Assembly: GCA_026709025.1 (NCBI GenBank)
Contig: JAPOTT010000029.1
Location: forward strand, 86,231-150,230
Source of the DNA: a bacterium
Lineage (GTDB): Bacteria > Actinomycetota > Acidimicrobiia > Acidimicrobiales > Bin134
Direction: 5' to 3'
DNA: 64,000 nucleotides
Under the pieces are notes generated by a model. That model did no database searches and was not told the DNA's origin. It was given only the letters and a program-made list of their open reading frames with translations. Shown one piece after another: positions 6,725 to 64,000 of the stretch (positions within the stretch are counted from its first letter, which is position 1; each line of letters begins with the position of its first letter). A program made the translations under genes and the position numbers.

Positions 6725-6835
6725 TAAGCTTCTACCCTAGCGCGACAAGGAGGCCGATAAATAACTAAAGCGGTCATCGGTGGCAGATGGTGTAGTCTGC
6801 TAGAAGTATCTGGCGTAGTATGCCAGAGCACAATA

Positions 6836-6908: not shown

Positions 6909-7052
6909 CAGGCGCAACCCGGCAGTCGCAACATGGCAGGCGCAGCCCGGCAGGCGCAATCCAACAACACAGCGCTCCAAGCAGCATCGCAACCCAACGC
7001 GCATCTAGAGTAAATCTTAGAGTAGCCAGCACACCCTTACGGAGAAGAGGTT

Positions 7053-8033
7053 ATGGAAGTCGTTACAAAAAAGAAGCTCGCGCTCATCTCGGGGCGAGCA
7101 AATGAACACCTTGCTAGTGATATTGCACGGTGTTTGAACGAACAGCTAGTGGAACCAACCCTAGCCGACTTCGCTAACGGGGAAATCCATTGTCGTTTCG
7201 GAGAGTCTGTGCGGGGCACCGATGTGTTCATCGTGCAAAGCCATACTGCTTATGGGCAAGCCACCATCAACGATGCGGTGATGGAGCACCTCATCATGGT
7301 AGATGCGGCTCGGCGAGCGTCTGCCAAGCGTATTACTGCGGTGTGTCCGTTTTTTGGTTATGCCCGCCAAGATCGCAAGGCCGCAGGCCGAGAGCCCATT
7401 ACCGCTAAGTTGATGGCCAATGCCTTTCGGGTTGCTGGGGCCAACCGGATGCTGAGCGTAGATTTGCATTCGGGGCAGATTCAGGGTTTTTTTGACGGCC
7501 CGTGGGATCACCTCACCGCAATGCCGGTGCTCACCGAGTATCTCAAGGGCGTGGATGGAGATTTGGCCGTGGTGTCGCCTGATGCTGGCCGGGTGAAGGT
7601 GGCCGAGCGCTATAGCAATGAGTTGGGTGCTGATTTGGCCATCGTCCACAAGCGCCGCGCCAAAGATGTAATGCATTCGGTGGAGGTAACCGAAGTGGTG
7701 GGCGATGTGGCGGGGCGTACTTGTGTGCTGATTGACGACATGATCGACACCGGTGGCACCATCGTGGCCGCTGCTGATGCTTTAGCCACTAGAGGTGCGG
7801 CCAACGTTGTTGCTGCTACCACTCATGGGGTGTTTTCTGGCCCAGCCATAGATCGCATCAAAAACTCGGCCATCTCTAAGGTGGTGATAACCAACACGCT
7901 CCCGTTACCGCCGGATAAGCAGATCGACAAGATTGAGGTGCTTTCGGTGGCAAGCATCATTGCCGATGCCATAGACGCTGTGTTTGAAGACACCTCTGTG
8001 TCGGAGATCTTCGGCGGCAAAAACCTTTCTTGA
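7053..8033 (+). CDS. prs: Ribose-phosphate pyrophosphokinase
   Basis: PRPP-binding loop VLIDDMIDTGGTI, plus YARQDRK and HSGQIQGFF motifs. 326 aa. Confidence 0.93.
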   Translation: MEVVTKKKLALISGRANEHLASDIARCLNEQLVEPTLADFANGEIHCRFGESVRGTDVFIVQSHTAYGQATINDAVMEHLIMVDAARRASAKRITAVCPFFGYARQDRKAAGREPITAKLMANAFRVAGANRMLSVDLHSGQIQGFFDGPWDHLTAMPVLTEYLKGVDGDLAVVSPDAGRVKVAERYSNELGADLAIVHKRRAKDVMHSVEVTEVVGDVAGRTCVLIDDMIDTGGTIVAAADALATRGAANVVAATTHGVFSGPAIDRIKNSAISKVVITNTLPLPPDKQIDKIEVLSVASIIADAIDAVFEDTSVSEIFGGKNLS

Positions 8034-8082
8034 TTGCTTTGCTGTTTACGGTGGTTTGAGAGGTAGCATTAGCGGCTGCACT

Positions 8083-8748
8083 ATGGCTGAGTTGATATTA
8101 AAAGCCGATACCACAAGGCAGTTGGGTACCCGTCCAGCTCGCAGGCTGCGTCGCGCCGGTCAGGTGCCGGGTGTGGTGTACGGGTTGGGCGGCGATTCCG
8201 TGCCGGTGGTCGTGAATGCTCGGGAGTTGCGGAATGCGCTCAATACCGAGGCTGGCTTGAATGCTCTGCTCACCCTAGATGTAAACGGCGACCACCAGCT
8301 TGGCTTGGTGAAGGAGTTGCAGCATCATCCAGTACGCAACGAGGTTGTTCATGTGGACTTCATCCGCGTGGATGCCGATGTTGCTGTTGAGGTTGAGGTG
8401 CGCTTGGTGTTGGTGGGTGAAGCCTTAGGGGTAACACACGAAGGTGGCGTGGTGGATCAAGCATCCTTTGTGGTGGGGGTTGCGGCCAAGCCTGAGGTGA
8501 TTCCCAATGAGCTCACCATCGACATTTCTGAGATGACCATGGGCGACACTCTCCGAACCGGCGATATAGCGCTGCCTGAAGGGGTGGAGTTGGTTGGCGA
8601 CCCTGAAGAGTTGGTTGCAAGCACCTCGGTGGCTGTGATTGAGGTGGCGCAGCCTGATGTGTCGCTAGACGAAGAGGGCGAACCGGTTGATGCCGAAGCG
8701 GCAGGCCAAGCCGCAGACGAGTCCTCTTCACAAGAATCCGCCGAGTAG
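8083..8748 (+). CDS. rplY: 50S ribosomal protein bL25 (Ctc form)
   Basis: RRLRRAGQVPGVVYG motif and an acidic C-terminal tail. I prefer the ATG at 8083 over the longer ORF starting at 7984, which overlaps prs. Confidence 0.85.
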   Translation: MAELILKADTTRQLGTRPARRLRRAGQVPGVVYGLGGDSVPVVVNARELRNALNTEAGLNALLTLDVNGDHQLGLVKELQHHPVRNEVVHVDFIRVDADVAVEVEVRLVLVGEALGVTHEGGVVDQASFVVGVAAKPEVIPNELTIDISEMTMGDTLRTGDIALPEGVELVGDPEELVASTSVAVIEVAQPDVSLDEEGEPVDAEAAGQAADESSSQESAE

Positions 8749-8766
8749 TACTCGGCGCCTGTCGCC

Positions 8767-9378
8767 GTGCCCGCCCGTTGGCGCTCTCGCAAAGTTTACG
8801 CTGGCACGCCTGCTGATCTTTTGGTGGTTGGGTTGGGCAACCCGGGCAAACGGTTTGCAGGTACCCGCCACAACGTGGGAGCAGACGTGGTGGAGTTGTT
8901 AGCCAGCCAACACGGACAGACCCTGCACAAGACCAAACAAGCCGCGCTGGTAGCTGAGGTATTGTTAGATAAGCGTCGGCTGGTGTTGGCATTTCCTCAG
9001 ACTTATATGAACAAATCTGGAGAGTCGGTGCGGCCTTTAGTGCGCCGCTGGAATATGGCCGAGCAACTAGAGCGCTTGGTGGTGATTCACGATGAGCTGG
9101 ATTTGCCAGCGGGTAAAATCAAGGTAAAACACGGCGGTGGGTTGGCTGGACACAACGGCCTGTCGTCCATTAAGGATCATCTTCACAGTGTTGGCTTCAC
9201 ACGCATTCGCATAGGGGTAGGCAAGCCTCCGAGTGCCCCCGCTGGGGCAGACTATGTATTGCAACGCCCGGGTATCGCAGAGCAGGGGTTGCTCCAAGAT
9301 GCCATAAGACGTTCTGCAGATGCAGCCTTAGCATTGCTAAACGAATCTTTAGAGATTGTGATGAACAGGTTCAACTGA
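8767..9378 (+). CDS. pth: Peptidyl-tRNA hydrolase
   Basis: LVVGLGNPG...YAGTRHNVG motif and a GHNG motif. GTG start; the exact start is uncertain. Confidence 0.88.
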   Translation: MPARWRSRKVYAGTPADLLVVGLGNPGKRFAGTRHNVGADVVELLASQHGQTLHKTKQAALVAEVLLDKRRLVLAFPQTYMNKSGESVRPLVRRWNMAEQLERLVVIHDELDLPAGKIKVKHGGGLAGHNGLSSIKDHLHSVGFTRIRIGVGKPPSAPAGADYVLQRPGIAEQGLLQDAIRRSADAALALLNESLEIVMNRFN

Positions 9379-12300
9379 TGCCTGTGAAAACTACAGATAC
9401 AGCTGTGGCAACTAGCGATGCAACCACAGACAATGGTAGCCAAGATGCAGTGCCAGCGTTAGCTGACTTAGGCCACAAGCTTGCCCAAGAAGGTGGCATA
9501 ATCGATGTTCTGGGCAGACAAGATGCAGCCTTGGCTGTGGCTGAGGCCGGTCAGGCTGCGGTGCTAGCTGCCATTGCCGAGTTGGGCGGTCGTAGCCCGG
9601 TGTTGGTGGTTACTCCCACTAGCAGCGATGCCGAGCGGTTGGTGGCAGATCTGTCGGTTATGTTGACGAGTGGCAGTGGCACGCCTAGCGATAGTGCGCC
9701 TGGCAACTGCACGCCTAGCAGTGGCACGCCTAGCAACGGCACGCCTAGCAATGGTGCGTCTAGCGATAGTGCAGCTACCGGTGGGGCGGCGCTGTTTCCA
9801 GCTTGGGAGACGCTCCCGTTTGAGCGGATGAGCCCAGGTGTGGAAACTATGGGCTTGCGTTCTCAGGCCGCTTGGTATCTGCGTAATCCCGATGTTGGCC
9901 CTAAGGTGTTGGTTGCCTCGGTGCGGGCATTGCTTGGCAGGCTAGTGCCAGATTTGGCGCAAGTAGAGCCAATTAGGGTGGCTCGAGGTACACGGGTAGA
10001 TCTCCGTGAGCTTACAGAGGGGCTAGTTGAGCGGGGGTATCGCCGCGATGTGCAAGTTGAGCATCGCGGGGTGTTTGCGGTGCGCGGTTCCATCTTGGAT
10101 GTGTTTGGTTCAACCGCCGATGCGCCGGTTCGCATAGACCTGTGGGGAGATGAGGTAGACCGCCTGAGCGAGTTCTCTGTGTCGGATCAGCGTTCAACTC
10201 GCCCATTAGCCGAGATAACCATCTTTGCAGCCCGAGAAGTACGGCCCACCCCGCAGATGCGCGCCATGGCTAAGAACCTAGTGAGCGTGGCTCCGTGGGG
10301 TCGCGAGCAGTGGGAGCGCATAGCTGAGGGGCAGTTCTTTGACGGCATGGAGTCTTGGTTGCCGTGGTTATGCGACAGTGAGGAGTTATTGCCCGACAGG
10401 TTAGGCCCCGATGCTCTAGTAGTTTTGCTGGAACCCGCTCGCCTGCGCGACAGGGCAGCCGACATAGCCGCAGAAGAGGCCGACCTTGCCGCAGTACTGG
10501 CCCAAACTTGGGGTGCGGGTGACACCGAGTTTCCCCAACTGCACCTGGCCTATGAGCGCTTGTTGGCCAAGTGTGCTGCCCCAGCGTGGAGCATAACCTC
10601 TGTCCCCTCAGGCCCCTCTACTCCCACGGTAACCGTAGGTGGCTGGGCATCGCCCATAGGCGACCCTGCTGCCCCGATGCAGCAAGCCAAACGTTTTTTG
10701 GCAGAGGGCTATGAGGTGCGTGTGGCCGCAGATAGTGAGGGGTCGGCCACCAGGATCAACGCCTTGCTTGATGAGCATGGCGTGGCCTTACCCGTGGTAA
10801 CTGCCCCCCTTCAGCGCGGGTTTGTGCTGCCTAATTCTAAGTTGGCTGTTTTGAGCGAGGCAGACCTTACCGGTCGCCGCCGTGCTCATCGCCCCAAACG
10901 CACCCGCAGAACCGCAGCCAAAGAACTAGACGACCTCACAACAGGCGATCATGTGGTGCATCGGCATCACGGCGTGGGTCGTTACTGCGGCATGGTGCAT
11001 CGCTCCATCGGCGGTATCAGCCGCGATTACTTGCTAGTGGAGTACCGGGGAGGCGACAAGCTGTACGTGCCTACCGATCAGCTAGATGCTATCCGCCGCT
11101 ATTCGGGTGGTGAAACACCAACGCTAAGCAAAATGGGCGGTGCCGACTGGCAGCGCACCAAGAGCGGAGTACGTACTGCCGTTAGCGAGATAGCCCAAGA
11201 ACTAGTGGTGTTGTACCGTCGTCGAATCAACACCCCAGGGCGGGCCTTTTCGTCCGACACCCCGTGGCAGGCTGAGATGGAAAGCGCTTTTGGGTATCAG
11301 CTCACCCCCGATCAAAACAAAGCCATTGCCGAGGTAAAAGCCGACATGGAACAACCTGTTCCCATGGATCGGCTCATCTGTGGAGATGTGGGTTTTGGTA
11401 AAACCGAGATAGCCATAAGAGCAGCATTCAAGGCCATTCAAGACGGCACACAAGCAGCGGTGTTGGTGCCTACAACCTTGTTAGCCCAACAGCACTACCA
11501 AACCTTCAGCGAGCGTTTTGCTGCTTATCCCATCAAAGTTGAGGTGCTTAGCCGGTTTCTTACCCCTAAACAAGCCCGCAAGGTAATACAAGGGCTAGCT
11601 GATGGCTCGGTAGACCTAGTAATCGGCACCCATCGTTTGTTGTCTGAAGACATCGTGTTCAAACAGCTTGGCCTGTTGGTGGTGGATGAAGAACAGCGCT
11701 TCGGGGTGTCTAACAAGGAGGCCATAAAGTCCCTCCAAGCCGACATAGACGTGCTCACCCTGAGCGCCACGCCCATCCCGCGCACGCTTGAGATGAGCCT
11801 TACAGGCATCCGCGACCTCACCTTGTTGCACACCCCGCCTGCGGAGCGCCAGCCAATCTTAACTTATGTGGGTACCTTCGATGAGCGGCCCGTGGCAGAG
11901 GCTATTCGCCGCGAGCTGTTGCGGGAAGGCCAAGCTTTCTTCGTGCATAATCGGGTGGCCGATATCGAGCACATAGCCCAAGACCTGCGGGAGATGGTGC
12001 CCGAGGCTCGCATTGCCGTAGCCCACGGGCAGATGGACGAGGGCACGCTAGAACAGGTGGTTATCGATTTCTGGGAACATGCTTACGATGTGTTGGTGTG
12101 TACCACCATCATCGAGTCGGGGATAGATATGCCAACGGTGAACACTTTGGTGGTGGATCGGGCCGACATGTTGGGCTTAGGACAACTCCATCAGCTGCGT
12201 GGCCGGGTGGGACGTAGCGGGGCTCGGGCCTATGCCTACCTGCTGAGCCCGCCCGATAAGGTGCTCACCGAACAAGCCTATGAGCGGCTCAAAACCATTG

Positions 12301-12959
12301 GTGAGGCCACAGAGCTGGGGTCGGGCTTCAAGATAGCCATGCGAGATTTAGAGATTCGCGGGGCTGGCAATATGTTGGGCACCGGGCAATCTGGCCATAT
12401 CGCCGCAGTTGGTTACGATTTGTATTGCGAGATGGTTTCAGAAGCAGTGGCGGAGCTAAAGGGTCAGACACCGCTAGAGGTGGTAGAGATAAGCATCGAC
12501 CTGCCTGTGCCTGCGGGCATTCCAGCAGATTACATGCCCAAAGAAGAACTGCGTTTGGAGGCTTACAGGCGGGTGGCAAGTTGCGAGCAGCCCACCGAGG
12601 TAGATGATGTGGCCAGCGAGTGGGCAGATCGTTATGGGCCAGTACCAGCTCTGGCCGAGGCGCTTTTGGAAGGTGCCCGCCTGCGTTGTGAATGCTTGCG
12701 GACTGGTGTGCGCGAGATCACCATGACCAAAGCCACAAACATGGGTGGCCCCAAGTGGGTGGCCCGCTTAGGGCCGCTTCAACTCAGAGCTAGCCGCAGG
12801 GTGCGCTTGGAGCGGCTGTATCCCAAAGCTTCCTACCATGAAAGTTCGGGTTTCTTGCGGTTACCGGTATCTTCGGCCACCCAAGCAGCCGCTAGTTTGA
12901 TCCACGTGCTTCAAGATTTAGTGCCAGATGACAACACATCGGCCGCGATGGCCTCATGA
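9378..12959 (+). CDS. mfd: Transcription-repair coupling factor
   Basis: 1193 aa. Helicase motifs GDVGFGKTE, VVDEEQRFGV, TATPIPRTL and QLHQLRGRVGRS. The start overlaps the pth stop. Confidence 0.95.
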   Translation: MPVKTTDTAVATSDATTDNGSQDAVPALADLGHKLAQEGGIIDVLGRQDAALAVAEAGQAAVLAAIAELGGRSPVLVVTPTSSDAERLVADLSVMLTSGSGTPSDSAPGNCTPSSGTPSNGTPSNGASSDSAATGGAALFPAWETLPFERMSPGVETMGLRSQAAWYLRNPDVGPKVLVASVRALLGRLVPDLAQVEPIRVARGTRVDLRELTEGLVERGYRRDVQVEHRGVFAVRGSILDVFGSTADAPVRIDLWGDEVDRLSEFSVSDQRSTRPLAEITIFAAREVRPTPQMRAMAKNLVSVAPWGREQWERIAEGQFFDGMESWLPWLCDSEELLPDRLGPDALVVLLEPARLRDRAADIAAEEADLAAVLAQTWGAGDTEFPQLHLAYERLLAKCAAPAWSITSVPSGPSTPTVTVGGWASPIGDPAAPMQQAKRFLAEGYEVRVAADSEGSATRINALLDEHGVALPVVTAPLQRGFVLPNSKLAVLSEADLTGRRRAHRPKRTRRTAAKELDDLTTGDHVVHRHHGVGRYCGMVHRSIGGISRDYLLVEYRGGDKLYVPTDQLDAIRRYSGGETPTLSKMGGADWQRTKSGVRTAVSEIAQELVVLYRRRINTPGRAFSSDTPWQAEMESAFGYQLTPDQNKAIAEVKADMEQPVPMDRLICGDVGFGKTEIAIRAAFKAIQDGTQAAVLVPTTLLAQQHYQTFSERFAAYPIKVEVLSRFLTPKQARKVIQGLADGSVDLVIGTHRLLSEDIVFKQLGLLVVDEEQRFGVSNKEAIKSLQADIDVLTLSATPIPRTLEMSLTGIRDLTLLHTPPAERQPILTYVGTFDERPVAEAIRRELLREGQAFFVHNRVADIEHIAQDLREMVPEARIAVAHGQMDEGTLEQVVIDFWEHAYDVLVCTTIIESGIDMPTVNTLVVDRADMLGLGQLHQLRGRVGRSGARAYAYLLSPPDKVLTEQAYERLKTIGEATELGSGFKIAMRDLEIRGAGNMLGTGQSGHIAAVGYDLYCEMVSEAVAELKGQTPLEVVEISIDLPVPAGIPADYMPKEELRLEAYRRVASCEQPTEVDDVASEWADRYGPVPALAEALLEGARLRCECLRTGVREITMTKATNMGGPKWVARLGPLQLRASRRVRLERLYPKASYHESSGFLRLPVSSATQAAASLIHVLQDLVPDDNTSAAMAS

Positions 12960-12975
12960 ACCCAAAAAATACCTC

Positions 12976-13725
12976 ATGAACCCACAAAATAACGGCGATG
13001 TGTGTCAGGTAATTGAGCAGTTCTTGGATTTGGCTGTGGAGTTACGCCAGAAATGCCCTTGGGATCGCCAGCAAACCCATCAGTCGCTGCGCGGCCATCT
13101 GTTGGAGGAGGCTTATGAGGTGCTTGAAGCCCTAGATGCAGTAAGCCCAGCAACCTTGAGCGGCTATGAGGACTTAGCCGAAGAACTAGGAGACCTGCTT
13201 TATCAGATTGTGTTTCACTCCTTGTTGGCTACAGAGGTGGGCCAGTTCACCTTTGCCGATGTGACCAAAGGCATCCACGACAAGCTAAAGGCCCGTCACC
13301 CCCACATTTTTGGCCCTCAGACTGATGCTGCTGGGGTTGACGTTGCAGGAGCTAAAAACACAGAGGATGGGGGTGTCGGCGCCCAAGCTGCACAGGACAC
13401 ATCGGCTCAAGATAATGGCACCGAGATCACAAAGATGGGTGCCGCACAGAACTGGGAAGCCATGAAGCGCGAACAAAAGGGACGGGCCTCGGTGATGGAG
13501 GGCATCCCGGTGGGCTTGCCCGCGCTTTTGTTTGCCGACAAGGTTATTCACAAGGCTCGTTCGGTGGGCCTAGAGCCAGAAGTAGACACCACAACCGTTG
13601 CCGGTCGCCTTTATGATGCTGTAAAAGATGCTCAATCGCACGGCCTAGATGCCGAATCAGAGCTGCGAGCCTTTGTGAACAGCATCGGTGAGCAGATTCG
13701 CCAACGCGAAATTTCTTCTATGTAA
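12976..13725 (+). CDS. mazG: Nucleoside triphosphate pyrophosphohydrolase MazG
   Basis: CPWDRQQTHQSLRGHLLEEAYEVLEAL and EELGDLLYQIVFH motifs. The ATG at 12976 lies in the second copy of a 20-bp duplication. The track start at 12928 overlaps mfd. Confidence 0.85.
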   Translation: MNPQNNGDVCQVIEQFLDLAVELRQKCPWDRQQTHQSLRGHLLEEAYEVLEALDAVSPATLSGYEDLAEELGDLLYQIVFHSLLATEVGQFTFADVTKGIHDKLKARHPHIFGPQTDAAGVDVAGAKNTEDGGVGAQAAQDTSAQDNGTEITKMGAAQNWEAMKREQKGRASVMEGIPVGLPALLFADKVIHKARSVGLEPEVDTTTVAGRLYDAVKDAQSHGLDAESELRAFVNSIGEQIRQREISSM

Positions 13726-45987: not shown

Positions 45988-47523
45988 ATGAAGGTTGCCT
46001 TGAACGTACTGGACTTTTTGAACCGTGCTGAAGCTGTCTATGGGCAGCGTGTGGCTATAACCGATGAGCCCGATCAACCGGCCAAGAGTTGGGGCGACAT
46101 TACGTTTGCGCAAATTGCCGAGCTAGCCCGCAAACAAGCTGCTGGTCTGGATGCTCACGGCATCGGTTTTGGAGAGCGAGTGGCTGTGGTGTCGCAGAAC
46201 TCGGCACGAATGTTGGTGTCTTTTTTTGGGGTGAGCGGCTTTGGCCGTGTGTATGTGCCTATTAATTTTCGCCTCCAAGCTCCAGAGATCAACTACATAG
46301 TGGAGCACTCTGGGGCCTCCATGTTGTTGGTAGACCCTGAACTGAAAGACTCGCTAGCTGGGGTTGATTGCGCCCACCGTTATGTATTAGGTGCCGAAAG
46401 CGATGAGGCCCTTTTTGGGGCCAACTCCGAGCCTCAGCCGTGGCAGGCCAACGAAGATGCTACAGCTGTTATTAACTACACATCTGGTACCACCGCCCGC
46501 CCTAAGGGTGTTCAGATGACACATCGTTCTTTGTGGCTCAACGCGGCTATCTTCGGCTGGTCTGTTGGTGTGAGCGACCGGGATGTGTACTTGCACACTT
46601 TGCCTGCTTTTCACTGCAACGGGTGGGGTATGCCGTATGCACTCACTGGTGTCGGTGCCCGCCAAATTGTGCTACGCAAGATAGACGGTGCAGAGATATT
46701 ACGTCGCATAGATAAATATGGTGTTACCTACTTTTGTGGAGCGCCCGCAGTAGTGGCTGCTGTTTTGGATGCAGCTCAACGCTGGGAAGGCCCTATCCCA
46801 GGTGCTGGGAAGGTACGCATATCGGTGGGGGGAGCCCCGCCACCTACCCGCACCATCGAGCGTATAGCAACCGAGTTGGGTTGGGAGTTCATCCAGTTAT
46901 ATGGCCTTACCGAAACAGCCCCGGTGCTCACCTTAAGCCGTCAACGCCAAGAGTGGGACGATCTCAGCACCGCCGAGCGGGCGGCCAAGTTGGCAAGAGC
47001 GGGTGTGCCTGTGCTGGGGGTTTCGTTAGATACCGATCCTCAGGGCGAGGTGTTAGCAAAGGGCAACAATGTGTTGGAGGCTTACTGGGAGCAGCCCGAA
47101 GCAACAGCCGAAGCGTTGGAGGGAGGCTGGTTTCATACCGGTGATGGCGGGTTTATAGACGAAGATGGTTATCTGAATATCTCAGATCGCAAGAAGGATG
47201 TAATCATCTCGGGTGGAGAGAATGTGTCTTCCATAGAGGTGGAAGATGCTTTGTTTGCACACCAAGCGGTAGCGGAGGTGGCTGTGATTGGTGTGCCCGA
47301 CGACAAATGGGGTGAAACCGTGAAGGCGTTGGTGGTGCTAGCGCCGGGCGCAGAAGCCACAGAGCAGGAACTGATTGGGCATTGTCGCAGCCTGATCGCT
47401 CACTACAAGTGTCCCACCTCAATAGAGTTCCGAGACGAACTAGCCCGCACCGCCACCGGCAAGCTACAGAAATACCGCTTACGTGAGCCCTACTGGGCTG
47501 ACCAAAGCCGCCAAGTAAGCTAA
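45988..47523 (+). CDS. AMP-dependent acyl-CoA synthetase/ligase
   Basis: AMP-binding motifs YTSGTTARPKGV, GWFHTGDGG and DRKKDVIISGGENV. Confidence 0.9.
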   Translation: MKVALNVLDFLNRAEAVYGQRVAITDEPDQPAKSWGDITFAQIAELARKQAAGLDAHGIGFGERVAVVSQNSARMLVSFFGVSGFGRVYVPINFRLQAPEINYIVEHSGASMLLVDPELKDSLAGVDCAHRYVLGAESDEALFGANSEPQPWQANEDATAVINYTSGTTARPKGVQMTHRSLWLNAAIFGWSVGVSDRDVYLHTLPAFHCNGWGMPYALTGVGARQIVLRKIDGAEILRRIDKYGVTYFCGAPAVVAAVLDAAQRWEGPIPGAGKVRISVGGAPPPTRTIERIATELGWEFIQLYGLTETAPVLTLSRQRQEWDDLSTAERAAKLARAGVPVLGVSLDTDPQGEVLAKGNNVLEAYWEQPEATAEALEGGWFHTGDGGFIDEDGYLNISDRKKDVIISGGENVSSIEVEDALFAHQAVAEVAVIGVPDDKWGETVKALVVLAPGAEATEQELIGHCRSLIAHYKCPTSIEFRDELARTATGKLQKYRLREPYWADQSRQVS

Positions 47524-47535: not shown

Positions 47536-47581
47536 CCCACCAGACGCAACTCTAGACGCGCTGTAGTTAATGTGTTCTTAG

Positions 47582-48766
47582 TTAATTTGTTCCTAGTTCT
47601 TTCAGGATAATTCGCTCAGGTACCAGGTCGGTCAATCTGGTTAAGTTGCCTACACGTTCCAAATAGCCTGACAGCGTAAGTCGTCTATTGATCCCATAGG
47701 CAGTATCTGGGTTTTGACCAGTTTGTCGTGCGATGTCCACAATTTTTGCTTCTCCTCCCAAATCTACAAGTCCTCGTAAATGGCATCTTTCAGAGTCAGA
47801 CAAATCATAAAAGGCTGGTTCACTGATCTTTTCATCAAACTGCTTTTGCGCTAACCTAGCTGCTTGTCTTACTGCAAGCGTGTCAATATCCTGCGTGGGA
47901 GCATTGGCCACAGTCCATGCTGAGTGTCCTAAGAGTTGGAGCTTGTAGGGCGAACTTGCAGTGCTTTCTACAGCAATGTTGAGCGCATTATCTGTAATAT
48001 TACCGCCAGAATCCTTTATAGGATGTAGTAATCCTTTAGTCACTTCAGCTTCGCTTAATGCAGGCATATCGTATTGTTGGCATCGCTGAAAGAAGGTCAT
48101 TTTTTTGTCTTGCATAATTGTATATTTCATCTCAGATAGGCCCGCGCCTATAAAAGCTAGGGGTAACTCATCTCTTTTGGTTATATGTTGCAGGTCGTTG
48201 GAGAGCCTTCGTCCTTCATTTCTTTCGACAGCATGAAGTTCATCCACAGTCAGTATCACTGCTGTATTGTGTGTTTGGGCTTGTTCTGCAAGATAAGTTA
48301 ATTGCCTCCTGAGCCCCATCATGCTAATGTTCAGGTTAGATTCCGCCTCAGTTATCTCCCCTTTGAACACTCCAATATCTATGCTTTTAGTTTTCTCGAC
48401 AGTTCGCGAATCGGTCAGTCTGGATAAATCAATGTCTGGGTATCGTTCGGGTAAGGATTGAATTGCGTCTTGTATTCGTTCCAAAAGACTGTTTGTGCCA
48501 GCATCCACAGATATCACAATCCAACCGTCGGATGCTGCACGATCCTCAATTTCGGTTAGCAGAACTGTCTTGCCAGATCCCCGAACCCCCAGCAAAAGAC
48601 TGGTGTATCGCGGATCTCTCGGGCCGGTCACTAATCCAGTGCCAAGTTCAGCTAGGAGATCGTCTCGGCCTACCAACATTGCAGGAAGCTGCCCAAATCC
48701 AGGTGAAAAAGGGTTAGGGTTCGCCTGCCCCAATGCCGATGTAGTGCCCTTTTGCGTGTTCTGCAT
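47582..48766 (-). CDS. P-loop AAA+ ATPase with C-terminal winged-helix domain (Orc1/Cdc6- or AAA_16-like)
   Basis: Walker A GVRGSGKTVLL, Walker B ILTVDELH and a C-terminal wHTH-like region (IVDIARQTGQNPDTAYGINRRLTLSGYLERV). GC is clearly lower than the neighbouring genes. The ATG at 48766 is preferred; a GTG at 48769 is also possible. Confidence 0.7.
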   Translation of the reverse strand: MQNTQKGTTSALGQANPNPFSPGFGQLPAMLVGRDDLLAELGTGLVTGPRDPRYTSLLLGVRGSGKTVLLTEIEDRAASDGWIVISVDAGTNSLLERIQDAIQSLPERYPDIDLSRLTDSRTVEKTKSIDIGVFKGEITEAESNLNISMMGLRRQLTYLAEQAQTHNTAVILTVDELHAVERNEGRRLSNDLQHITKRDELPLAFIGAGLSEMKYTIMQDKKMTFFQRCQQYDMPALSEAEVTKGLLHPIKDSGGNITDNALNIAVESTASSPYKLQLLGHSAWTVANAPTQDIDTLAVRQAARLAQKQFDEKISEPAFYDLSDSERCHLRGLVDLGGEAKIVDIARQTGQNPDTAYGINRRLTLSGYLERVGNLTRLTDLVPERIILKELGTN

Positions 48767-48970
48767 CACTCCAACTTAGCGCACCAGCACACATAAATCC
48801 GCACCAACGCACAGAAAGTCATTATACTACACAGACACCTCACCGGCACACAGGAAATTGATCGGCGCACAGAACTCACACGAACCCACAAGGGGATGGC
48901 CTTAGGCCATTGAGGAATTGCCAGCCCGCTGTTAGCGCATAGGTATGGGTGTCGTTTTGTCAACAAAAAT

Positions 48971-49006
48971 ATTATTCTATTAAGTGAATTTACTCAATAG
49001 AATAAT
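48971..49006. repeat. 15-bp inverted repeat (attattctattaagt / actcaatagaataat) with a 6-nt spacer
   Basis: 14 of 15 positions are complementary. It sits exactly at the 5' truncation point of the DUF4143-type remnant and at the edge of the low-GC segment. Confidence 0.8.
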
Positions 49007-49342
49007 TGTGGTTACAGCTTTGAGGAGGCACAAGCCGACCGCTCCCATTGGGGTCGTTTAGTAGAGAGCAGTGTGGGTGCCCATTTACTGAATGCTGCTT
49101 CGGCTAGAACCGAGGTTAAATACTGGCGCGATAAGGGCCATGAGGTGGATTTCGTGCTTCAACGCGGGCCGCAAATCGTAGGTGTGGAGGTAAAGAGCGG
49201 ACAAGGTGTTTCACATACAACGGGCATTGCGGAGTTTGAAACCCGTTTCAATCCAGTCAACACCGTTGTTGTTGGCGGTTCTGGTGTGCCTCTTAACGAG
49301 TTCCTAACCCGCCCTCCTGATCACTGGTTTGGTTCTGTATGA
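49007..49342 (+). pseudogene. 3' remnant of a DUF4143-type ATPase gene that retains the restriction-endonuclease-like core
   Basis: HWGRLVESSVGAHLL...KGHEVDFVLQRGPQIVGVEVKSG aligns with the C-terminus of the intact paralogue at 22309-23541 (GRLMGSMVETFVVAQL...GRHEIDVIVEFGGGRLVGIEVKAS). The P-loop half is absent. The stop overlaps the next gene's ATG (ATGA). Confidence 0.65.
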
Positions 49343-51744
49343 GCGTGTATGTAGCCCGTACTTGCACCGAAGTTGACTTTGCTGACAAGGGTTGTTCTAG
49401 TGCTCCTCTCAGCAGCTTTAGGGAGCAGTCTGGGTATGTGCTGTTAGGCGATCCCGGCTCAGGGAAGACCACCGAGTTCAAGCGAGAGCAGGCGGCGTTG
49501 GGTGATTCCGCAGTGTGTATAAGTGCCCGAGACTTCTGTACCTTCTCGGTAAGCTCTCACCCCGAGTGGCAAGGTAAGACTCTCTTTATCGACGGGCTTG
49601 ACGAGGTGCGGGCCGGAGCCACTGATATGCGCTCAGCTTTGGATAAGATACGCAGGCAGCTTGATCAGCTTGGTAAACCACGGTTTCGCCTATCGTGCCG
49701 AGAGGCCGACTGGTTGGGCAACAACGATCTCCAGAGCTTGAAGGCAGTTTCTCCCGATTCCCAGATAACCGTTCTGCGACTTGATCCCCTCAGCGAAGAC
49801 AACATAGCCAAGCTGCTTAGACAGCATCATGGTTTGAGTGATGCATCAAGTTTTATGGATGAGGCTGAACAGCGAGGACTGATCGGGCTGCTCGGCAATC
49901 CGCAGACGCTGGTATTGCTGCTTGACGTGGTGGCACAAGAGGGACACTGGCCAGAAAGTCGCTTAGAGACGTTTGAGAGGGCTTGCCAGCAAATGGCCGT
50001 AGAACAAAACGAAGAGCATTGCATTGGCTCAGGAGTCTCGTCAGAAGATGCGGTATTGGATGCTGCTGGTTACCTGTGCGTGGTGTATCTGCTTGCCGAT
50101 GTTGCAGGATTTTCGTCTGCTCCTAATGCTGATAATCACCTAACGACTCCGATCCACTCCCTACAAGAGCTGCCCAACCTGCCAAGTAGAGAACACATGG
50201 AGCGTGTACTTAAAACAAGGCTGTTCGTTGCTCAAGACGAACACGGCCACAGCCCGGTCCACCGCCATTTAGCTGAGTTTCTAGCTGGCCGTTATCTCGC
50301 CAAGTTGATTGGTGATGGTTTATCAGCCACAAGGATAGTTGCACTGTTAACCAGACCAGAGGATGAGCGAGTTGTCACCACCTTACGAGGTCTTTCTGCA
50401 TGGCTTGCGGCTTGTTCGCCTCGTGCGCGGCAGTTATTGATAGATGCCGACCCTGTTGGGGTTGGTTTGTATGGCGACATCGGCAATTTCTCAGCCGAAG
50501 AGAAGAAGCGCTTGCTGGAATCGCTAGGTCAGTTTGCAGCAAGCGGGCCATTGCTGGGCTACGAACAGCGTGATGGGCAGTTTGTTGGCTTCCGGGATTC
50601 CACGGCTTGGGCTTTTCGATCCCTCATATCTAAAGATACAGCACCTGCCGTCAAGGAGTTGTTGTGTATCTTAGATCAGGGGGCCAAAAACAACCGAATA
50701 GCCGACTTTATCTTGACGTTGCTTAAGTCTGTAGAGAAGGAAACTTTGCAGTTATTTGACGACATCGGTACAGGCATTGAGACAATTGTCCGCAACCCGA
50801 AGCAATCTTCTATGTCTCGTTGCCTAGCGTTGGATGTTTGCATTCGTTTAGTAATTGAATGTGATATTGGGGCTGCTTGTTTGCTTCAGCTTTTGGGCGA
50901 TATATGTGCTGGTACGGTGTCCGACCCCGAGGATGATTTACGTGGCACCCTCTTGCAATACCTGTACCCAGCGCAGATACATCCATCAAAGATATGGGAT
51001 TATATTTTACCATGCAATCAGCGCTACTACTCGGGTCGTTTTTCTAAGTTTTGGCGTTCTCAGATTCTTGAACAATCTGAAGCCGGTCATCTGGCGGAGT
51101 TACTCGACTCGCTCAGTGAAGACAATTCAAAGATTATTTTGGCTTTAGAGCAGGCTGGTTTCAGAGACTTGCCTTTTGAGCTACTGTGCCAGGGTTTAGA
51201 GGCTTGGGGAGATAAAATAGAGCCGTCACGTCTATATAACTGGCTAGATGCTCCGAAACGTTCCCAAAACCCTAGATATCTACAAGAGCTGCGGTATGAA
51301 AACGATAGTCCAGCATGGCGGATTAAAAAGTGGCTGGAAGCTCATCCTAACATTCAGAAATTAGTTTTCTTAGCATGGATCAGGCGGCACAAGAGCGATA
51401 CCCGTAGAGTCAATTACGATCCTCAACTTTGCAATGCCTTGCACTGGAGTAAGCCTGCGGGTGACTTCGGTGTTTGGTGCCTTAGCACTGCGCTTCAGTT
51501 GGCAGATTCCGAACAGTCTACCGCAGATGCGCTGCTGTTGCTGGCTTACCGTTCTCTGCAAGACCCTGCCATTAGTGAAGAGCTCACGATTGAGCGCCTA
51601 CAACGTCAAACAAAAGGTAACACCAGGCTAGCCGCGCTGCTTGAGAGCCTTTGTAAGCCTTCGCTTCCACGAAAAGAAGAACTGGAGTGGCAGCAAGAGG
51701 AGCAGAAGCGTATAGAAGATTATGAAGCAAAAAGGCGTAAATAG
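49339..51744 (+). CDS. NACHT/STAND-type NTPase with a helical C-terminal region. It ends at an in-frame TAG and the reading frame continues.
   Basis: Walker A LGDPGSGKTTE, Walker B LFIDGLDEV, then RLSCRE, GNPQTLVLL and the NACHT-like HRHLAEFLAGRYLA motif. Confidence 0.75.
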   Translation: MSVYVARTCTEVDFADKGCSSAPLSSFREQSGYVLLGDPGSGKTTEFKREQAALGDSAVCISARDFCTFSVSSHPEWQGKTLFIDGLDEVRAGATDMRSALDKIRRQLDQLGKPRFRLSCREADWLGNNDLQSLKAVSPDSQITVLRLDPLSEDNIAKLLRQHHGLSDASSFMDEAEQRGLIGLLGNPQTLVLLLDVVAQEGHWPESRLETFERACQQMAVEQNEEHCIGSGVSSEDAVLDAAGYLCVVYLLADVAGFSSAPNADNHLTTPIHSLQELPNLPSREHMERVLKTRLFVAQDEHGHSPVHRHLAEFLAGRYLAKLIGDGLSATRIVALLTRPEDERVVTTLRGLSAWLAACSPRARQLLIDADPVGVGLYGDIGNFSAEEKKRLLESLGQFAASGPLLGYEQRDGQFVGFRDSTAWAFRSLISKDTAPAVKELLCILDQGAKNNRIADFILTLLKSVEKETLQLFDDIGTGIETIVRNPKQSSMSRCLALDVCIRLVIECDIGAACLLQLLGDICAGTVSDPEDDLRGTLLQYLYPAQIHPSKIWDYILPCNQRYYSGRFSKFWRSQILEQSEAGHLAELLDSLSEDNSKIILALEQAGFRDLPFELLCQGLEAWGDKIEPSRLYNWLDAPKRSQNPRYLQELRYENDSPAWRIKKWLEAHPNIQKLVFLAWIRRHKSDTRRVNYDPQLCNALHWSKPAGDFGVWCLSTALQLADSEQSTADALLLLAYRSLQDPAISEELTIERLQRQTKGNTRLAALLESLCKPSLPRKEELEWQQEEQKRIEDYEAKRRK

Positions 51745-51762
51745 CAGTCTGAATGGGCAGAG

Positions 51763-52461
51763 TTGGTGGGGGGACACCGCGCAGATTTGGAGGAAAATCG
51801 GGCCGCTCCTAACTTGCTGCACAATCTGGCTATGGCTTATTTCGCTTTTATTGTTGAAGTGGATCAACGTGCCAGCCCGCAAGAACGTATCAGCCAATTC
51901 TTAGGTGACGATGTCGAGTTGACCGGCGTGGTGCTCACCGCTCTGCGTGAAGCAGCTTTCCGAGATGATCTGCCTGAGGTGGATAGCACAATCTCGCATC
52001 GCGCAGGGCTCAGGGATTTCATCGGTACTCATAACGAAAGATCCAGGCATCTAGCTGAGATGCTACGAGGCTGCGCCTACAACCAATCGTGGGGGCCTTC
52101 AATAATGGGCCAGTGCTCAGATGCAGCCCTTTTGTGCGATGTGATACAGATGCTAGGCAGTCTCTATGGGCCGCTGTTCCCAGCTGGGCGTGTAACTTTG
52201 GAAGTAGATGCCTCAGATCGCATCGCCAGCATGATCTCCCTGCTTGCTGCAATGCCTAGCGAAGCTGCCCAAGAGTCGTTGACTGACTTGTCCAGCGATC
52301 CGCAGCTAACTTCATGGCACAAGCACATCCAGCATGCAAGCGAAAGCCAGAGAGTTCTCTTAGGAGATGCCTCCTATATAACCCTAAGCACAGAGCAAGT
52401 CCAAAACACCCTCAGCAACCAAAACCCCGCCAACGTATGTGCGGTATTTACAGGGTATTAG
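51763..52461 (+). pseudogene. Continuation of the STAND NTPase reading frame after the TAG at 51742-51744
   Basis: It is in the same frame as 49339-51744 and only 6 sense codons separate the TAG from the track start. There is no independent RBS or ATG (TTG start in the track). Confidence 0.55.
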
Positions 52462-52486
52462 ACATGGTTAACTATAAGTAGAACAG

Positions 52487-54121
52487 CTAGCGGATGGTGA
52501 CTGGGGTGGATACTTGGGTGAAGAAGTCGTTGCCTTTGTTGTCGGTAACTATGAAGGCAGGGAAGTTTTCAACCTCGATGCGGAATACCGCTTCCATGCC
52601 CAACTCTGGGTACTCCAGCACCTCCACCTTGCGTATGGAGTCTTTGGCTAGACGGGCGGCGGGGCCGCCGATGGAACCGAGGTAGAATCCGCCATGGCGG
52701 GCACATGCTTCTGCCACTTGGCGGGAGCGGTTGCCCTTGGCCAGCATCACTAGGCTCCCGCCTGCTGCTTGGAACTGATCTACATAGGCATCCATGCGCC
52801 CCGCAGTGGTTGGGCCAAAGGAGCCAGAGGCGTAGCCTTCGGGGGTCTTGGCGGGCCCGGCGTAGTACACAGGGTGGTTGCACAGGTACCGGGGCATGGG
52901 TTCCCCCGCATCTAGACGTTCTTTGATCTTGGCATGGGCGATGTCTCGGGCCACCACCAAGGTGCCACTCAGCGACAGCCGAGTTTTCACTGGCCACCTA
53001 GCAAGCTCCGCGCATATCTCAGCCATGGGTTGATTTAAGTCGATGCAGACAACCTCGCCACCCAACTCGTTATCGGTTATCTCAGGCAAAAAGCGGGCCG
53101 GGTCGGTTTCTAGCTGCTCTAAGAAAACCCCCTCGGCTGTGATCTTGCCCAGCACTTGGCGGTCGGCAGAGCACGACACCGCTACCCCCACCGGACACGA
53201 AGCCCCGTGGCGAGGCAACCGGATTACCCGCACATCATGACAGAAGTACTTGCCCCCAAACTGCGCCCCGATCCCAAACTGGCGGGTCAACTCTAAGATG
53301 CGCTCCTCCCACTCTAAGTCTCTGTACCCGTGTCCGGCAGCCGAGCCTTGCGTGGGTAGCGTGTCTAGATAGCGGGCCGAGGCGTACTTGGCTACCTTCA
53401 AGGTGTACTCCGCAGACGTGCCGCCAATTACCACTGCAAGGTGATAAGGCGGGCAGGCGGCGGTGCCTAAGGTACGCAGCTTTTGATCCATAAACCTGCT
53501 GAGCGATTCGGGGTTCAACAACGCCTTAGTCTCTTGGAACAAGAACGACTTGTTGGCCGAGCCTCCGCCTTTGGCCATGAACAAAAACGAGTAGACATCC
53601 CCCGGCGTGGCATATATTTCTATCTGCGCTGGCAGGTTGTTGGCGGTGTTGCGCTCGCTAAACATAGATAGCGGCGCAAGCTGCGAATAGCGCAGGTTGG
53701 AGGTTTGATAGGTGTCAAACACGCCTTGGGCAATGGCTTGTTCATCATCGGCATCGGTAAGCACCCTCTGGCCTTTGTGGCCCACCACCACTGCGGTGCC
53801 GGTATCTTGGCAGCCCGGCAGCACCCCTCCAGCGGCGATGTTTGCGTTGCGTAACAGTTCGGTGGCTACGAAGCGGTCGTTAGCCGATGCCTCTGGGTCT
53901 TCCAAGATGGCCGCTAGTTGCGCTAGGTGCCCCGAGCGCAGCAGGTGGGCGATGTCACGCATGGCTTCGGCGGTGAGAAGTCTTAGTGCCTCGGGGTGAA
54001 CCTGAAGGAACTGGCGATTTCCCAGCTCCACAACAGACACATAGTCAGATGTTAACAGGCGGTACTCGGTGGTGGTGTCGGGCCCTTTGGGGAGCAGTTC
54101 GGTGTAGGCGAAATCAGCCAT
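52487..54121 (-). CDS. Class I (Fe-S) fumarate hydratase
   Basis: 544 aa. Motifs [38 protein letters not shown] and GPTTAGRMD. Confidence 0.9.
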
Positions 54122-61308: not shown

Positions 61309-64000
61309 TTAGTTGTATATCGATTCTCCGGTGTTGTGGTAGCTGGTGTAGATGTGCTCGTAGATGGTGTCCACTTTGCGGTTGAACAGCTCGAGTTCGT
61401 AGGCATCGGGGAGTTCGTTATCTAGAACAGTCTTGATGGCCACTTTGACGGCTGAGCGGGTCTGCTGTTTGCGCTTCCAATCTAAGACGAGCTTCTCGGT
61501 TATGTGAGCGAGTAGGTTTTTGGCTGCGTTTTTCACTTGGACGGCTTGGGCTCGGGTGAGGTCGGGCTCAGGTTTGGTGAGCAGGTCGAAGATGGCCAGC
61601 TCTGCCTCTGTAATGCCCTCTCGCACGGCACGCTGCTCCTCGTCGGTCAGCTCATCGTTTATGGCCTTGAGTCGGCGCAGGAACTCTTCGAGGTTGTGGG
61701 TTCCAGCGTTGTACTCCTCGATGAGGTGCCGGAATCGCTCGGCCAGTTCGCTTCGGGTGGGGTTCTTGCGCACGGCATCATCTAGGCGGCCTGCGATGTT
61801 GTCTTGGGCAGCTTTGGCAGCGGTGCGCTTGCGGCCCTCGAAGCGCAAGAGGAACTGTTCGAAGTCGAGCTGGTTTAAGTCGATGAGGGAGTCGGTGCCG
61901 GTGGTATCGATAATGTACTCGTTGGCTGCCACAGAGCGGTCGAGCAGCTCCGCCACGGAGTCCATCACCCCAGCGATGTCGGGAGCCTCGGCAGAAGATT
62001 CGATCTTGGACGCGATGGTGCGGATCACCGCCATCTGATGGGCCACGGCGAGGGCTTCGGGGTCGGGCAGCAGGGCTTTGAAGGCTTTGCGGGCTTGCCT
62101 TGTTAGCGCCACGAAGCGGCGGCGGGTCTGTTCGTCCACCAGCAGCGCTTCCACAGCGGCCTTCTGCAAGGCGACGAACTCGAAGCCCTGAGCGGTTTGT
62201 AGGTCGGCTAGGTTGATGTCGCAGTTGTCGCAGAATTCGGCGATCTCGGCCAGCGCGGTGCTTAGCTCGGCGGCTAGCTCGGTGTTGGGCCGGATGGGGG
62301 AGTCTGCGCTTGGCATGGTGCCCGGCCCGGTGCGGTCTGCGCCTTCTCCGGTACGGTCGGCACCGTAGATGGCGAGGGCTCTCTCCAGATTCCGGAACAC
62401 ACCCACGTAGTCAACGATGAGGCCGTTGTCTTTGTCTGGGAACACCCGGTTGGCGCGGGCGATGGTCTGCATCAGGGCGTGATTGCGCATCGGCTTGTCG
62501 AGGTAAACCGTGGAGGTAGACGGCGAGTCGAACCCGGTGAGCCACATGGCACACACGAACACCAGGCGGAACGGATCCTCGGGATCTTTGAACCTGGCAT
62601 CGAGGTCTTCTGCCACCATGCGCTTGCGGTGCTTGGTGATATCGAGCCCAGCGTCGGCCATGTCGGCCACCTCGTTTTGAGCCTGCGACACCACCACGGC
62701 CATGTCGGTGGTGGTCATGAACCGGATAAGCGATTCTAGATGAGGGCGAGCTGGCGCCGGCGCGTCGGCCAGCTCGGCTTCGAGCTCAGCCCGGTAGCGG
62801 CCCCATTCGGTTTTCACCAGGTCGTACATGCGCACGGCGGTGGCCTTGTCGATGGCTACATACATGGCCTTGCCCCGAAACCCCCGGTTGACGAAGTGGC
62901 GCACCAGATCGACGGCGATCTCCTCGAGGCGCTGGGGCCGGGTGATCAGCTGGTATTGCCGGGAGAATTGGCGGGCCACCGCCTTCTCTTGGGCATCGTC
63001 GAGCGCAGCGGCCTCGAGGAGCTGTTCGAGTTCTTCGTCAAAGTCTTGGTTTACCAACTGGAGTTCGGGGATGCGGTTCTCGTAGAACAGCGGAACGGTG
63101 GCTCCGTCGGCAATGGAGTCGCGGAAGTTGTAGATCGACACGTAGTCGCCGAACACCCGTCGCGTCTCCTCCTCCCCATCTATCAGCGGCGTGCCGGTGA
63201 ACCCGATGAACGAGGCGTTGGGCAGTGCTCGGCGCATGTTGGCCGCCAGCGTGTCGTACTGAGAGCGGTGAGCCTCATCTGTGACCACCACGATGTTCTC
63301 CCGCTCCGACAGCACCGGCATGGCTTGGCCTTGCACGGGCGGGATGAACTTATGGATCAGCGTGAACACATAGCGGTGGTTCTGGCCTAGCAGCTCTCGA
63401 AGATGAGCCGAGGTCTTGGCGTGGATCTGCTGGCCAGCGGTGATCACCCCACAGTCGGCGAAATCGCCGTACAGCTGGTTGTCTAGCTCAGCGCGGTCGG
63501 TAACCATCACGAACGTCCAGTTGCCCGGTTCTTTGCGCAGCACCTTCTGGGTGAACCACAGCATCGACAACGATTTGCCCGATCCCTGCGTGTGCCAGAA
63601 CACCCCTAGCCGGCCCTCCCGCTGGCTTGCTTCCTGCAAGGCCTCCAGCGAGTTGTTTACCCCCAAGAACTGATGGTTCTTGGCCAGCGCTTTCACCAAA
63701 CCGCCCGGGCGTTCCATGTAGGCGATGAAGTTCTCCACCAGATCCAACAGGCGATGGGGCTCACAGGTGCCCCGCAGGGCGGTCTCTAGTGACACCACGC
63801 CCTGCTCGCCTTCGGTGTTGATCTTCTTCCACTCGCCGAAATGCCCCCAATCTGCGTACGTGGAGCCCACCAGCGTGTCGGCGCCGTTCGAGAGCATCAC
63901 GAACGCGTTGAACCAGAACAGGTGGGGAACCGTGTCGCGGTAGTCGCGCAGGTTTTGGTGGAAGGCATCGCGAACGCTCTTGTGCGACACCTTCAACTCA
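61309..64000 (-). CDS. hsdR: Type I restriction enzyme R subunit (N-terminus beyond the window edge)
   Basis: Motifs TQGSGKSLSM (Walker A), VTDEAHRSQY (DEAH), GFTGTP and QTIARANR. The frame is open to position 64000. Confidence 0.9.
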   Translation of the reverse strand, partial: ELKVSHKSVRDAFHQNLRDYRDTVPHLFWFNAFVMLSNGADTLVGSTYADWGHFGEWKKINTEGEQGVVSLETALRGTCEPHRLLDLVENFIAYMERPGGLVKALAKNHQFLGVNNSLEALQEASQREGRLGVFWHTQGSGKSLSMLWFTQKVLRKEPGNWTFVMVTDRAELDNQLYGDFADCGVITAGQQIHAKTSAHLRELLGQNHRYVFTLIHKFIPPVQGQAMPVLSERENIVVVTDEAHRSQYDTLAANMRRALPNASFIGFTGTPLIDGEEETRRVFGDYVSIYNFRDSIADGATVPLFYENRIPELQLVNQDFDEELEQLLEAAALDDAQEKAVARQFSRQYQLITRPQRLEEIAVDLVRHFVNRGFRGKAMYVAIDKATAVRMYDLVKTEWGRYRAELEAELADAPAPARPHLESLIRFMTTTDMAVVVSQAQNEVADMADAGLDITKHRKRMVAEDLDARFKDPEDPFRLVFVCAMWLTGFDSPSTSTVYLDKPMRNHALMQTIARANRVFPDKDNGLIVDYVGVFRNLERALAIYGADRTGEGADRTGPGTMPSADSPIRPNTELAAELSTALAEIAEFCDNCDINLADLQTAQGFEFVALQKAAVEALLVDEQTRRRFVALTRQARKAFKALLPDPEALAVAHQMAVIRTIASKIESSAEAPDIAGVMDSVAELLDRSVAANEYIIDTTGTDSLIDLNQLDFEQFLLRFEGRKRTAAKAAQDNIAGRLDDAVRKNPTRSELAERFRHLIEEYNAGTHNLEEFLRRLKAINDELTDEEQRAVREGITEAELAIFDLLTKPEPDLTRAQAVQVKNAAKNLLAHITEKLVLDWKRKQQTRSAVKVAIKTVLDNELPDAYELELFNRKVDTIYEHIYTSYHNTGESIYN

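Follow-up and report, generated by a model that had tools for sequence, protein, structure and literature searches.

What kind of element separates the genes for an acyl-CoA synthetase and a fumarase in a bacterial contig, and does it still encode a working defence system? The question is raised by an island of about 4.9 kilobases (kb; positions 47536-52470) on contig JAPOTT010000029.1, whose host is most likely a sponge symbiont from the Acidimicrobiia, close to Candidatus Poriferisocius. The window here means the full 64,000-nucleotide stretch of this contig that was analysed, and coordinates are given on its forward strand. A sequence-only reading of this DNA had listed an ATPase gene, a nuclease-core remnant and a NACHT-like STAND NTPase frame in the island, and had taken them for an antiviral system of undescribed arrangement. 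All of the listed elements are indeed present where that reading placed them. Our analysis leads to the conclusion, to which we assign a probability of about 85%, that the island consists of a decayed two-gene antiphage module of the Erebus/Avs10 family together with an intact ATPase gene combining an AAA_16 domain with a winged helix-turn-helix, that it occupies a hotspot for exchangeable cargo, and that the window copy of the module is dead.

The greater part of the island is taken up by a large forward-strand reading frame, which is divided by an in-frame TAG at 51742-51744 into a part of 801 codons closed by this stop (49339-51744) and a part of 238 codons that follows in phase (51745-52461). 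The 801-residue part matches the NCBIfam model NF058535 ("NACHT domain-containing antiphage protein EruA") with an E-value of 7.4e-143 and 478 bits over profile positions 14-745 of 1318, and the tail beyond the TAG matches the same profile at positions 1068-1146 with 74 bits; a weaker NCBIfam match is to HyoA. The frame contains a Walker A motif (GDPGSGKT, residues 37-44, 49447-49470) and a Walker B motif (LFIDGLDE, residues 82-89, approximately 49582-49605). It is recognized by NCBIfam only, with no significant match in Pfam or PADLOC: the Pfam NACHT model (PF05729) reaches 11.2 bits (E-value 0.32) on the window protein, under its gathering score of 26.7 bits. PHROGs gave no match for the relics of the island. 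Since sequence searches of the PDB with profiles of the whole NACHT family and of its C-terminal domain returned nothing, a comparison of folds was needed. A model of window residues 1-430, folded with an alignment of relatives (predicted local distance difference test score, pLDDT, 72.7), was compared with the PDB by Foldseek. Its 27 best fold matches are all NACHT modules of animal NLRs, namely NOD2, NLRC4, NLRP3, NAIP5 and other NLRPs, at E-values between 7e-10 and 2.5e-5 and query template-modelling (TM) scores of 0.33-0.60, with NOD2 and NLRC4 as the best (7e-10 to 1e-9). On the basis of the EruA match and the NLR folds, and not of the Pfam NACHT model, the large frame is a NACHT-type STAND NTPase, as had been proposed from the sequence alone.

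The paper by van den Berg (2024) is reportedly the one that defined Erebus, and the bNACHT proteins are said to have been the subject of Kibby (2023). Erebus, Hypnos and bNACHT64 are now treated as one family, Avs10, in which the ligand of a helical sensor is the HK97-fold major capsid protein (PMC12803255; Nature version, Lee et al. 2026, PMC13581612). The NACHT protein of the island falls in this Erebus/Hypnos/bNACHT64 family (PMC13581612), and the earlier suggestion that the locus belongs to no described system must be given up in this respect. An intact relative of the window protein (P0007, 1381 residues, 62% identical) spans the EruA profile almost completely (876 bits, positions 12-1317 of 1318). 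The curated equivalog cut-off of the EruA model is 1000 bits, and it is missed by the window copy (478 and 74 bits), by P0007 and by the homologues on proteobacterial plasmids (776-792 bits where tested). Given these scores, the clade is better viewed as a related subfamily, the trigger of which may differ from the capsid protein.

A protein search retrieved 3690 relatives of the large frame; full-length members are about 1385 residues long, with Pfam DUF8371, and most come from metagenome-assembled genomes (MAGs) of Acidimicrobiia, Candidatus Poriferisocius included. Comparison with such a protein reveals the extent of the damage in the window. In a blastp alignment of the conceptual 1040-residue product with a 1386-residue relative (P0004), window residues 1-896 correspond to P0004 residues 1-894 and window residues 883-1034 to P0004 residues 1057-1208, such that about 162 residues are missing from the interior and about 178 from the C-terminal end. 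On the DNA, the junction of the internal deletion lies near 51994-52026 and the 3' truncation near 52440, about 45 base pairs (bp) from the fumarase stop codon. The C-terminal loss removes the domain bearing a D/ExK motif, the presumed effector, the alignment ending at P0004 residue 1208 of 1386. This domain is conserved both in the clade and in the proteobacterial plasmid homologues, with E52, E76, D86, E99-x-K101 and Q115 invariant. Its structural model (pLDDT 83.4) matches a series of PD-(D/E)xK nucleases, namely the Can2 nuclease domain, R.BspD6I, Hjc, PaqCI, OkrAI and McrC. We propose that it is a PD-(D/E)xK nuclease-like domain; the family thus has a built-in candidate effector, which was lost in the window copy. 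Thus, the sequence-only reading, which found the NACHT protein to be without a fused effector, appears to have described the outcome of a deletion. Likewise, changing the TAG back to a sense codon, which it had proposed as a means of restoring the gene, would not restore the protein, because the internal and C-terminal residues would still be absent.

The second component of the module survives directly upstream, on the same strand, as the relic (49007-49342) of a gene for an AAA_14-DUF4143 ATPase-nuclease of PDC-S01 type that is truncated at its 5' end. Aligned by tblastn with a full-length partner protein, it shows 80% identity (E-value 5e-56) over partner residues 314-421. It retains residues 314-424 of 424, comprising the PD-(D/E)xK part with the motif EVDFVL...VEVK, and its first 313 codons are gone; the AAA_14 P-loop domain is absent from the relic, and nothing upstream of 49007 matches the partner. 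The relic contains an 89-residue open reading frame (ORF; 49073-49342, forward strand), whose stop is overlapped by the start of the 801-residue ORF by 4 bp. The small ORF matches Pfam DUF4143 at profile positions 116-160 of 160 only (E-value 6.9e-8, 32.8 bits, cut-off 28.1) and the PADLOC model PDC-S01 (PDLC04791) at profile positions 309-394 of 395 (E-value 3.9e-23). PADLOC, advised in the sequence-only reading, recognizes the small ORF and leaves the large frame unrecognized. Its identification of the small ORF as the 3' nuclease-like portion of a DUF4143 gene is upheld by Pfam, PADLOC and tblastn alike; its nomination of the ORF as the candidate effector is undermined by the loss of the 5' part of the gene and with it of the ATPase domain.

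What the module looked like before its decay can be judged from intact loci in unrelated contexts (L009 and L011), where an AAA_14-DUF4143 gene of 424-425 codons precedes the NACHT gene with the identical 4-bp overlap. In a survey in which one genome per species was scanned, 472 relatives were found and 80 loci kept; these come from MAGs of Acidimicrobiia, Chloroflexota/Dehalococcoidia, Latescibacterota, Gammaproteobacteria, Acidobacteria and Binatia, and represent at least six phyla. A full-length DUF4143 partner is encoded immediately upstream on the same strand in 77 of the 80, so that STAND homologues are preceded by DUF4143 genes as had been anticipated, though by a complete partner and not by a nuclease core. 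The two genes overlap by 4 bp in 65 of these 77 loci, none of the 77 partners deviates in its Walker A, Walker B or D/ExK motif, and the divergence of the partner from the reference follows that of the NACHT protein (Spearman rho 0.85). The MAGs that carry the module belong to at least six phyla, and many are named as sponge symbionts, which suggests horizontal spread within this habitat. EruA-like genes on proteobacterial plasmids (n = 7) have the partner upstream in no case, and six of the seven have no DUF4143 neighbour at all.

Individual loci in this set show further features. On plasmid p2 of Paracoccus sediminicola (L103) a DUF4143 gene (7008-8129) lies 105 bp downstream of the EruA-like gene, and the upstream neighbour of the EruA-like gene of Burkholderia ambifaria encodes a Schlafen/AlbA_2-HATPase_c_4 protein. 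In L009, which with L013 corresponds to OZ242339.1 2220472-2236614 and comes from a 4.0-Mb genome, the intact module sits between tRNA-synthetase genes with a PhdYeFM/PIN toxin-antitoxin pair upstream (3005-3657) and an AbiEii-like gene downstream (12174-13071), forming a small defence and toxin-antitoxin cluster in a housekeeping region. Some genomes possess two DUF4143-NACHT modules (L027/L029, L072/L073 and L086/L089).

PDC-S01 has been listed as an unvalidated candidate consisting of one gene and is reported to be fourth in frequency among the defence candidates of prokaryotes (PMC12988326), and DUF4143 has been placed in the PD-(D/E)xK superfamily (PMC3424549). No description of the DUF4143-NACHT pairing was found in the literature searched, a search that did not extend to the original Erebus and bNACHT descriptions. 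The pair, fixed and coupled in many symbiont genomes, has the appearance of a two-gene variant of Erebus/Avs10 that has not been described before.

The history of the window copy can be followed further in its close relatives, as three near-identical strains, with flanks that are about 99% identical, carry the island. The window allele has the TAG stop at codon 802. The allele shared by L006 and L007 (P0002, 987 residues; gene at 10001-12964) has CAG at this position, a K43E substitution in Walker A (GDPGSGET) and a 159-bp deletion (53 residues) that lies between two GATGCCTC(C/A) repeats; these disabling lesions are independent of the TAG of the window. The L105 allele (P0363, 1049 residues; 6001-9150) has a frame without interruption, the end of which lies 15 bp short of the fumarase stop; it retains the Walker A motif and has CAG at the TAG position and, relative to the window and L006, 17 extra bases just before the 3' end. 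All three alleles have the internal deletion in common and lack the nuclease domain. Shared deletions combined with separate lesions are what one would expect if the gene had been disabled a single time and had then gathered further damage.

The alleles also bear marks of recombination. The backbone of the window differs from that of L006 by about 1%, and the segment 49800-51000 by up to 46% per 150 bp. Across the divergent tract, taken as 49501-51000 in the substitution analysis, the synonymous divergence (dS) is 0.72 and the ratio of nonsynonymous to synonymous divergence (dN/dS) is 0.175. The L105 allele has the L006 haplotype in the divergent tract and the window haplotype at 51900-52350, and the DUF4143 relic differs among all three; this sharing of haplotypes indicates that the alleles are mosaics. 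The sequences point to diverged functional paralogues or alleles as the probable source of the divergent tract, acquired by recombination or gene conversion. The low dN/dS is consistent with such copying; no close donor was detected among 118 homologues compared by segment. The three alleles at one hotspot hence offer a small natural series on the decay of a defence module and its patching by recombination.

These observations have to be weighed against other accounts of the same locus. One could regard the shortened NACHT protein as no pseudogene product at all, and instead as a functional derivative without an effector, for example a decoy confined to sensing, a regulator or a protein that teams up with full-length paralogues. 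Such a role would suit the uninterrupted 1049-residue frame of L105 with its intact Walker A, the low dN/dS in a tract of such high dS, and the retention of the 4-bp overlap with the upstream relic. We nevertheless consider it improbable: two of the three alleles have independently acquired disabling changes (the TAG at codon 802 in one, K43E and the 53-residue deletion in the other), a family-invariant domain has disappeared along with 162 sensor residues, and in mosaic alleles a low dN/dS is what would be expected of a tract copied by recombination from a functional paralogue or allele. Very little credence remains for the model put forward in the sequence-only reading, namely a STAND system not previously described, whose short NACHT sensor, lacking an N-terminal part, is translationally coupled to the nuclease-core ORF as a separate effector, and which could be restored by repair of the stop. 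The small ORF does have a D...ExK motif and the 4-bp overlap with the NACHT start, and DUF4143 genes do accompany this NACHT clade; however, the upstream gene in 77 of 80 loci has about 424 codons and an invariant ATPase domain, of which the window keeps residues 314-424 without the natural start, the NACHT protein has lost a nuclease domain of its own, and its family is already described.

A comparably slim chance attaches to the idea that the TAG arose as an error in sequencing or assembly, or that it is recoded or read through, and that the gene in this strain is really a single 1040-residue frame. The TAG is the sole stop in that frame, which stays in phase for the 238 codons beyond it, and the sister alleles have CAG (glutamine) there. 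Against this, contigs from five samples (L001-L005) carry the locus, with the 801-residue product called on them, and L001 is 100% identical over 22.4 kb with the TAG included; this recurrence and identity speak against an assembly artefact. Recoding was rejected because TAG ends ordinary genes in the window, closing 8 of its 36 long ORFs, the fumarase gene among them, and even a read-through protein would be without its nuclease domain.

Several points do count against the interpretation of the island as a decayed module of the Erebus/Avs10 family. L105 keeps its frame open, and the dN/dS of the divergent tract implies that some constraint acted on these sequences at some time. No member of the clade, intact or broken, attains the curated EruA cut-off, and the equation of EruA and HyoA with the Erebus and Hypnos proteins is drawn from their names and their shared nature as NACHT antiphage proteins. 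The Foldseek matches of the nuclease domain are weak, though consistent (best E-value 2e-4, TM scores 0.3-0.4). Finally, the route by which the low-GC ATPase cassette described below arrived is not evident, as the locus yielded neither an integrase nor a target duplication nor the ends of a transposon.

With these points taken into account, the decayed two-gene module remains the account that we favour, and its workings may be pictured as follows. The ancestral module would have comprised an AAA_14-DUF4143 ATPase-nuclease of about 424 residues as gene 1 and, as a translationally coupled gene 2, an Erebus/Avs10-family NACHT STAND protein of about 1385 residues, combining a NACHT NTPase at the N-terminus with a long helical sensor and, at the C-terminus, a PD-(D/E)xK nuclease-like domain. 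The sensor of intact relatives would bind a phage protein (for Avs10, the major capsid protein with the HK97 fold); the NACHT module would then oligomerize and the C-terminal nuclease become active, leading to the death of the infected cell, and the DUF4143 protein might act as an obligate co-factor or as a second nuclease. In the window, gene 1 has lost its first 313 codons exactly where a cassette of lower guanine-plus-cytosine (GC) content with a palindrome abuts it, and gene 2 has lost about 162 sensor residues and the whole nuclease domain and, in this strain, acquired the TAG.

The cassette in question is defined by composition: GC content is 0.458 in 47536-49006 and 0.511 in 49007-52461, compared with 0.55-0.59 in the flanking genes and 0.54 in the whole window, which bears out the earlier observation that the ATPase gene lies below the backbone. 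This gene (47582-48769, reverse strand) encodes 395 residues with a C-terminal winged-helix-like segment and matches Pfam AAA_16 (E-value 2.3e-10) and AAA_22, with weak matches to nSTAND and ATPase_2. The label Orc/Cdc6-like once given to it finds no support beyond these generic AAA matches, as neither an Orc/Cdc6 ATPase profile nor a Cdc6 C-terminal winged-helix profile was matched in Pfam, NCBIfam and PADLOC gave nothing meaningful, and no PDB sequence match was obtained. Its 231 relatives, typically of about 430-450 residues and in some cases annotated with a MarR- or AbiEi-type helix-turn-helix, stand alone in varying neighbourhoods; HipBA adjoins one of them, and AbiEii and a type ISP restriction enzyme are near another. 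Residues 9-393 align with residues 10-394 of one relative (P0122) at 70% identity, with only a variable C-terminal tail absent, and the dN/dS relative to the sister strain is 0.31, calculated on just 6 differences. The gene looks intact from these comparisons and would be the only such gene in the island.

Upstream of the ATPase gene is a non-coding stretch (48770-49006) that ends in an AT-rich palindrome of 36 bp (48971-49006), situated at the breakpoint where the cassette meets the DUF4143 relic, which begins at the very next base. The inverted repeat seen in the sequence-only reading is thus genuine, its size having been underestimated at 15 bp: the arms are of 18 nucleotides, are 89% complementary and have no spacer between them. 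The palindrome is present a single time in the window, where chance would yield 0.01 matches, and, among the loci retrieved, is confined to alleles of this island. It was considered as a repeated element or shared operator and rejected as such, being island-specific, while relatives of the ATPase gene have unrelated palindromes upstream. The abutment of the cassette's palindrome on the relic suggests that the arrival of the cassette removed the first 313 DUF4143 codons. At the left edge of the cassette, 2-3 tandem copies of the 15-nucleotide unit TAGTTAATGTGTTCT extend across the stop codon of the ATPase gene (47564-47594). Promoter and terminator scans gave counts not above those of shuffled sequence.

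The island as a whole is flanked by two housekeeping genes, that for the AMP-binding acyl-CoA synthetase on the left (45988-47523, forward strand; Pfam AMP-binding annotated on identical loci) and that for a class I fumarate hydratase on the right (52487-54121, reverse strand; Pfam Fumerase and Fumerase_C annotated on identical loci), the latter with no amino-acid differences from the sister strain. In the nearest other species, with synthetase proteins 76-77% identical to that of the window, the junction differs in three cases. In L099 (9537-9671) the two genes are adjacent with a 135-bp spacer, an empty site. In L100 (9537-14640) the junction is filled by a type IIG-like methyltransferase-endonuclease and small ORFs, and in L098 (9783-14560) by restriction-type cargo and transposases, the fumarase being reduced to a fragment of 43 residues. 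The synthetase-fumarase junction is a hotspot for exchangeable cargo, being empty or differently filled in relatives and of atypical composition in the window, and the accessory nature proposed for the island stands. No intact module was found at this junction, and none of the 80 related loci has either flanking gene.

The marks of a mobile element are absent from the island. Transfer RNA (tRNA) and Rfam scans and the ORF list disclosed no tRNA gene, Rfam match or recombinase in or beside it, the lack of a recombinase having been noted before, and no flanking direct repeats, target duplication, transposon ends or integrase were found. A second defence gene lies about 9 kb away: an ORF running off the end of the window (61309-63999, reverse strand) corresponds to an HsdR-like type I restriction protein of about 1060 residues, with HSDR_N, ResIII and T1RH-like_C annotated on the identical locus L002.

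In summary, the accessory character of the island and the NACHT and DUF4143 identities assigned in the sequence-only reading were sound, and its conclusions on the effector, on repair, on novelty and on Orc/Cdc6 were not. The window locus is an ordinary pseudogenised defence locus; the interest lies in the DUF4143-NACHT pair outside the window. As the module in the window is dead, it has little direct importance, and its value is that of a pointer to a conserved, co-diverging pair. We advance tentatively, at somewhat less than even odds, the broader proposal that in sponge symbionts of at least six phyla the Avs10-like NACHT sensor works only with a coupled PDC-S01-type ATPase-nuclease, the two constituting a STAND system of two components and two PD-(D/E)xK nucleases, of which the window would hold a fossil in a recombination-active hotspot. 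If true, this would provide a first functional context and a testable role for PDC-S01, and would define a form of STAND immunity that requires a second ATPase.

Comparison with known systems places these elements as follows. Like defence islands and integration hotspots between core genes, the junction in the window is empty or refilled with other defence-type cargo in relatives; unlike them, it has no integrase, tRNA or attachment repeat. The NACHT module resembles in fold those of the animal NLRs NOD2, NLRC4, NLRP3 and NAIP5, with Foldseek E-values from 7e-10 to 1e-5 and query TM scores of 0.5-0.6, but the sequence identity is just 11-16% and the sensor and effector differ. The 89-residue ORF matches the model of PDC-S01 (AAA_14 plus DUF4143, COG1373), and the full-length partners have both domains; however, PDC-S01 is catalogued as a single gene, whereas in this clade it is half of a fixed pair, and the window keeps its last quarter only. 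With Erebus, Hypnos and bNACHT64, that is Avs10, the clade shares a NACHT NTPase beginning about 35 residues from the N-terminus without an N-terminal effector, followed by a long helical region and a C-terminal domain with a D/ExK motif, and its intact members span the EruA profile. The window copy departs from this collinear layout in its nonsense codon and in the loss of profile positions of approximately 746-1067 and 1147-1318. The clade as a whole departs from Avs10/EruA in scoring lower than the equivalog cut-off and, in contrast to six of the seven EruA-like genes of proteobacterial plasmids, in nearly always being preceded by a coupled DUF4143 ATPase gene.

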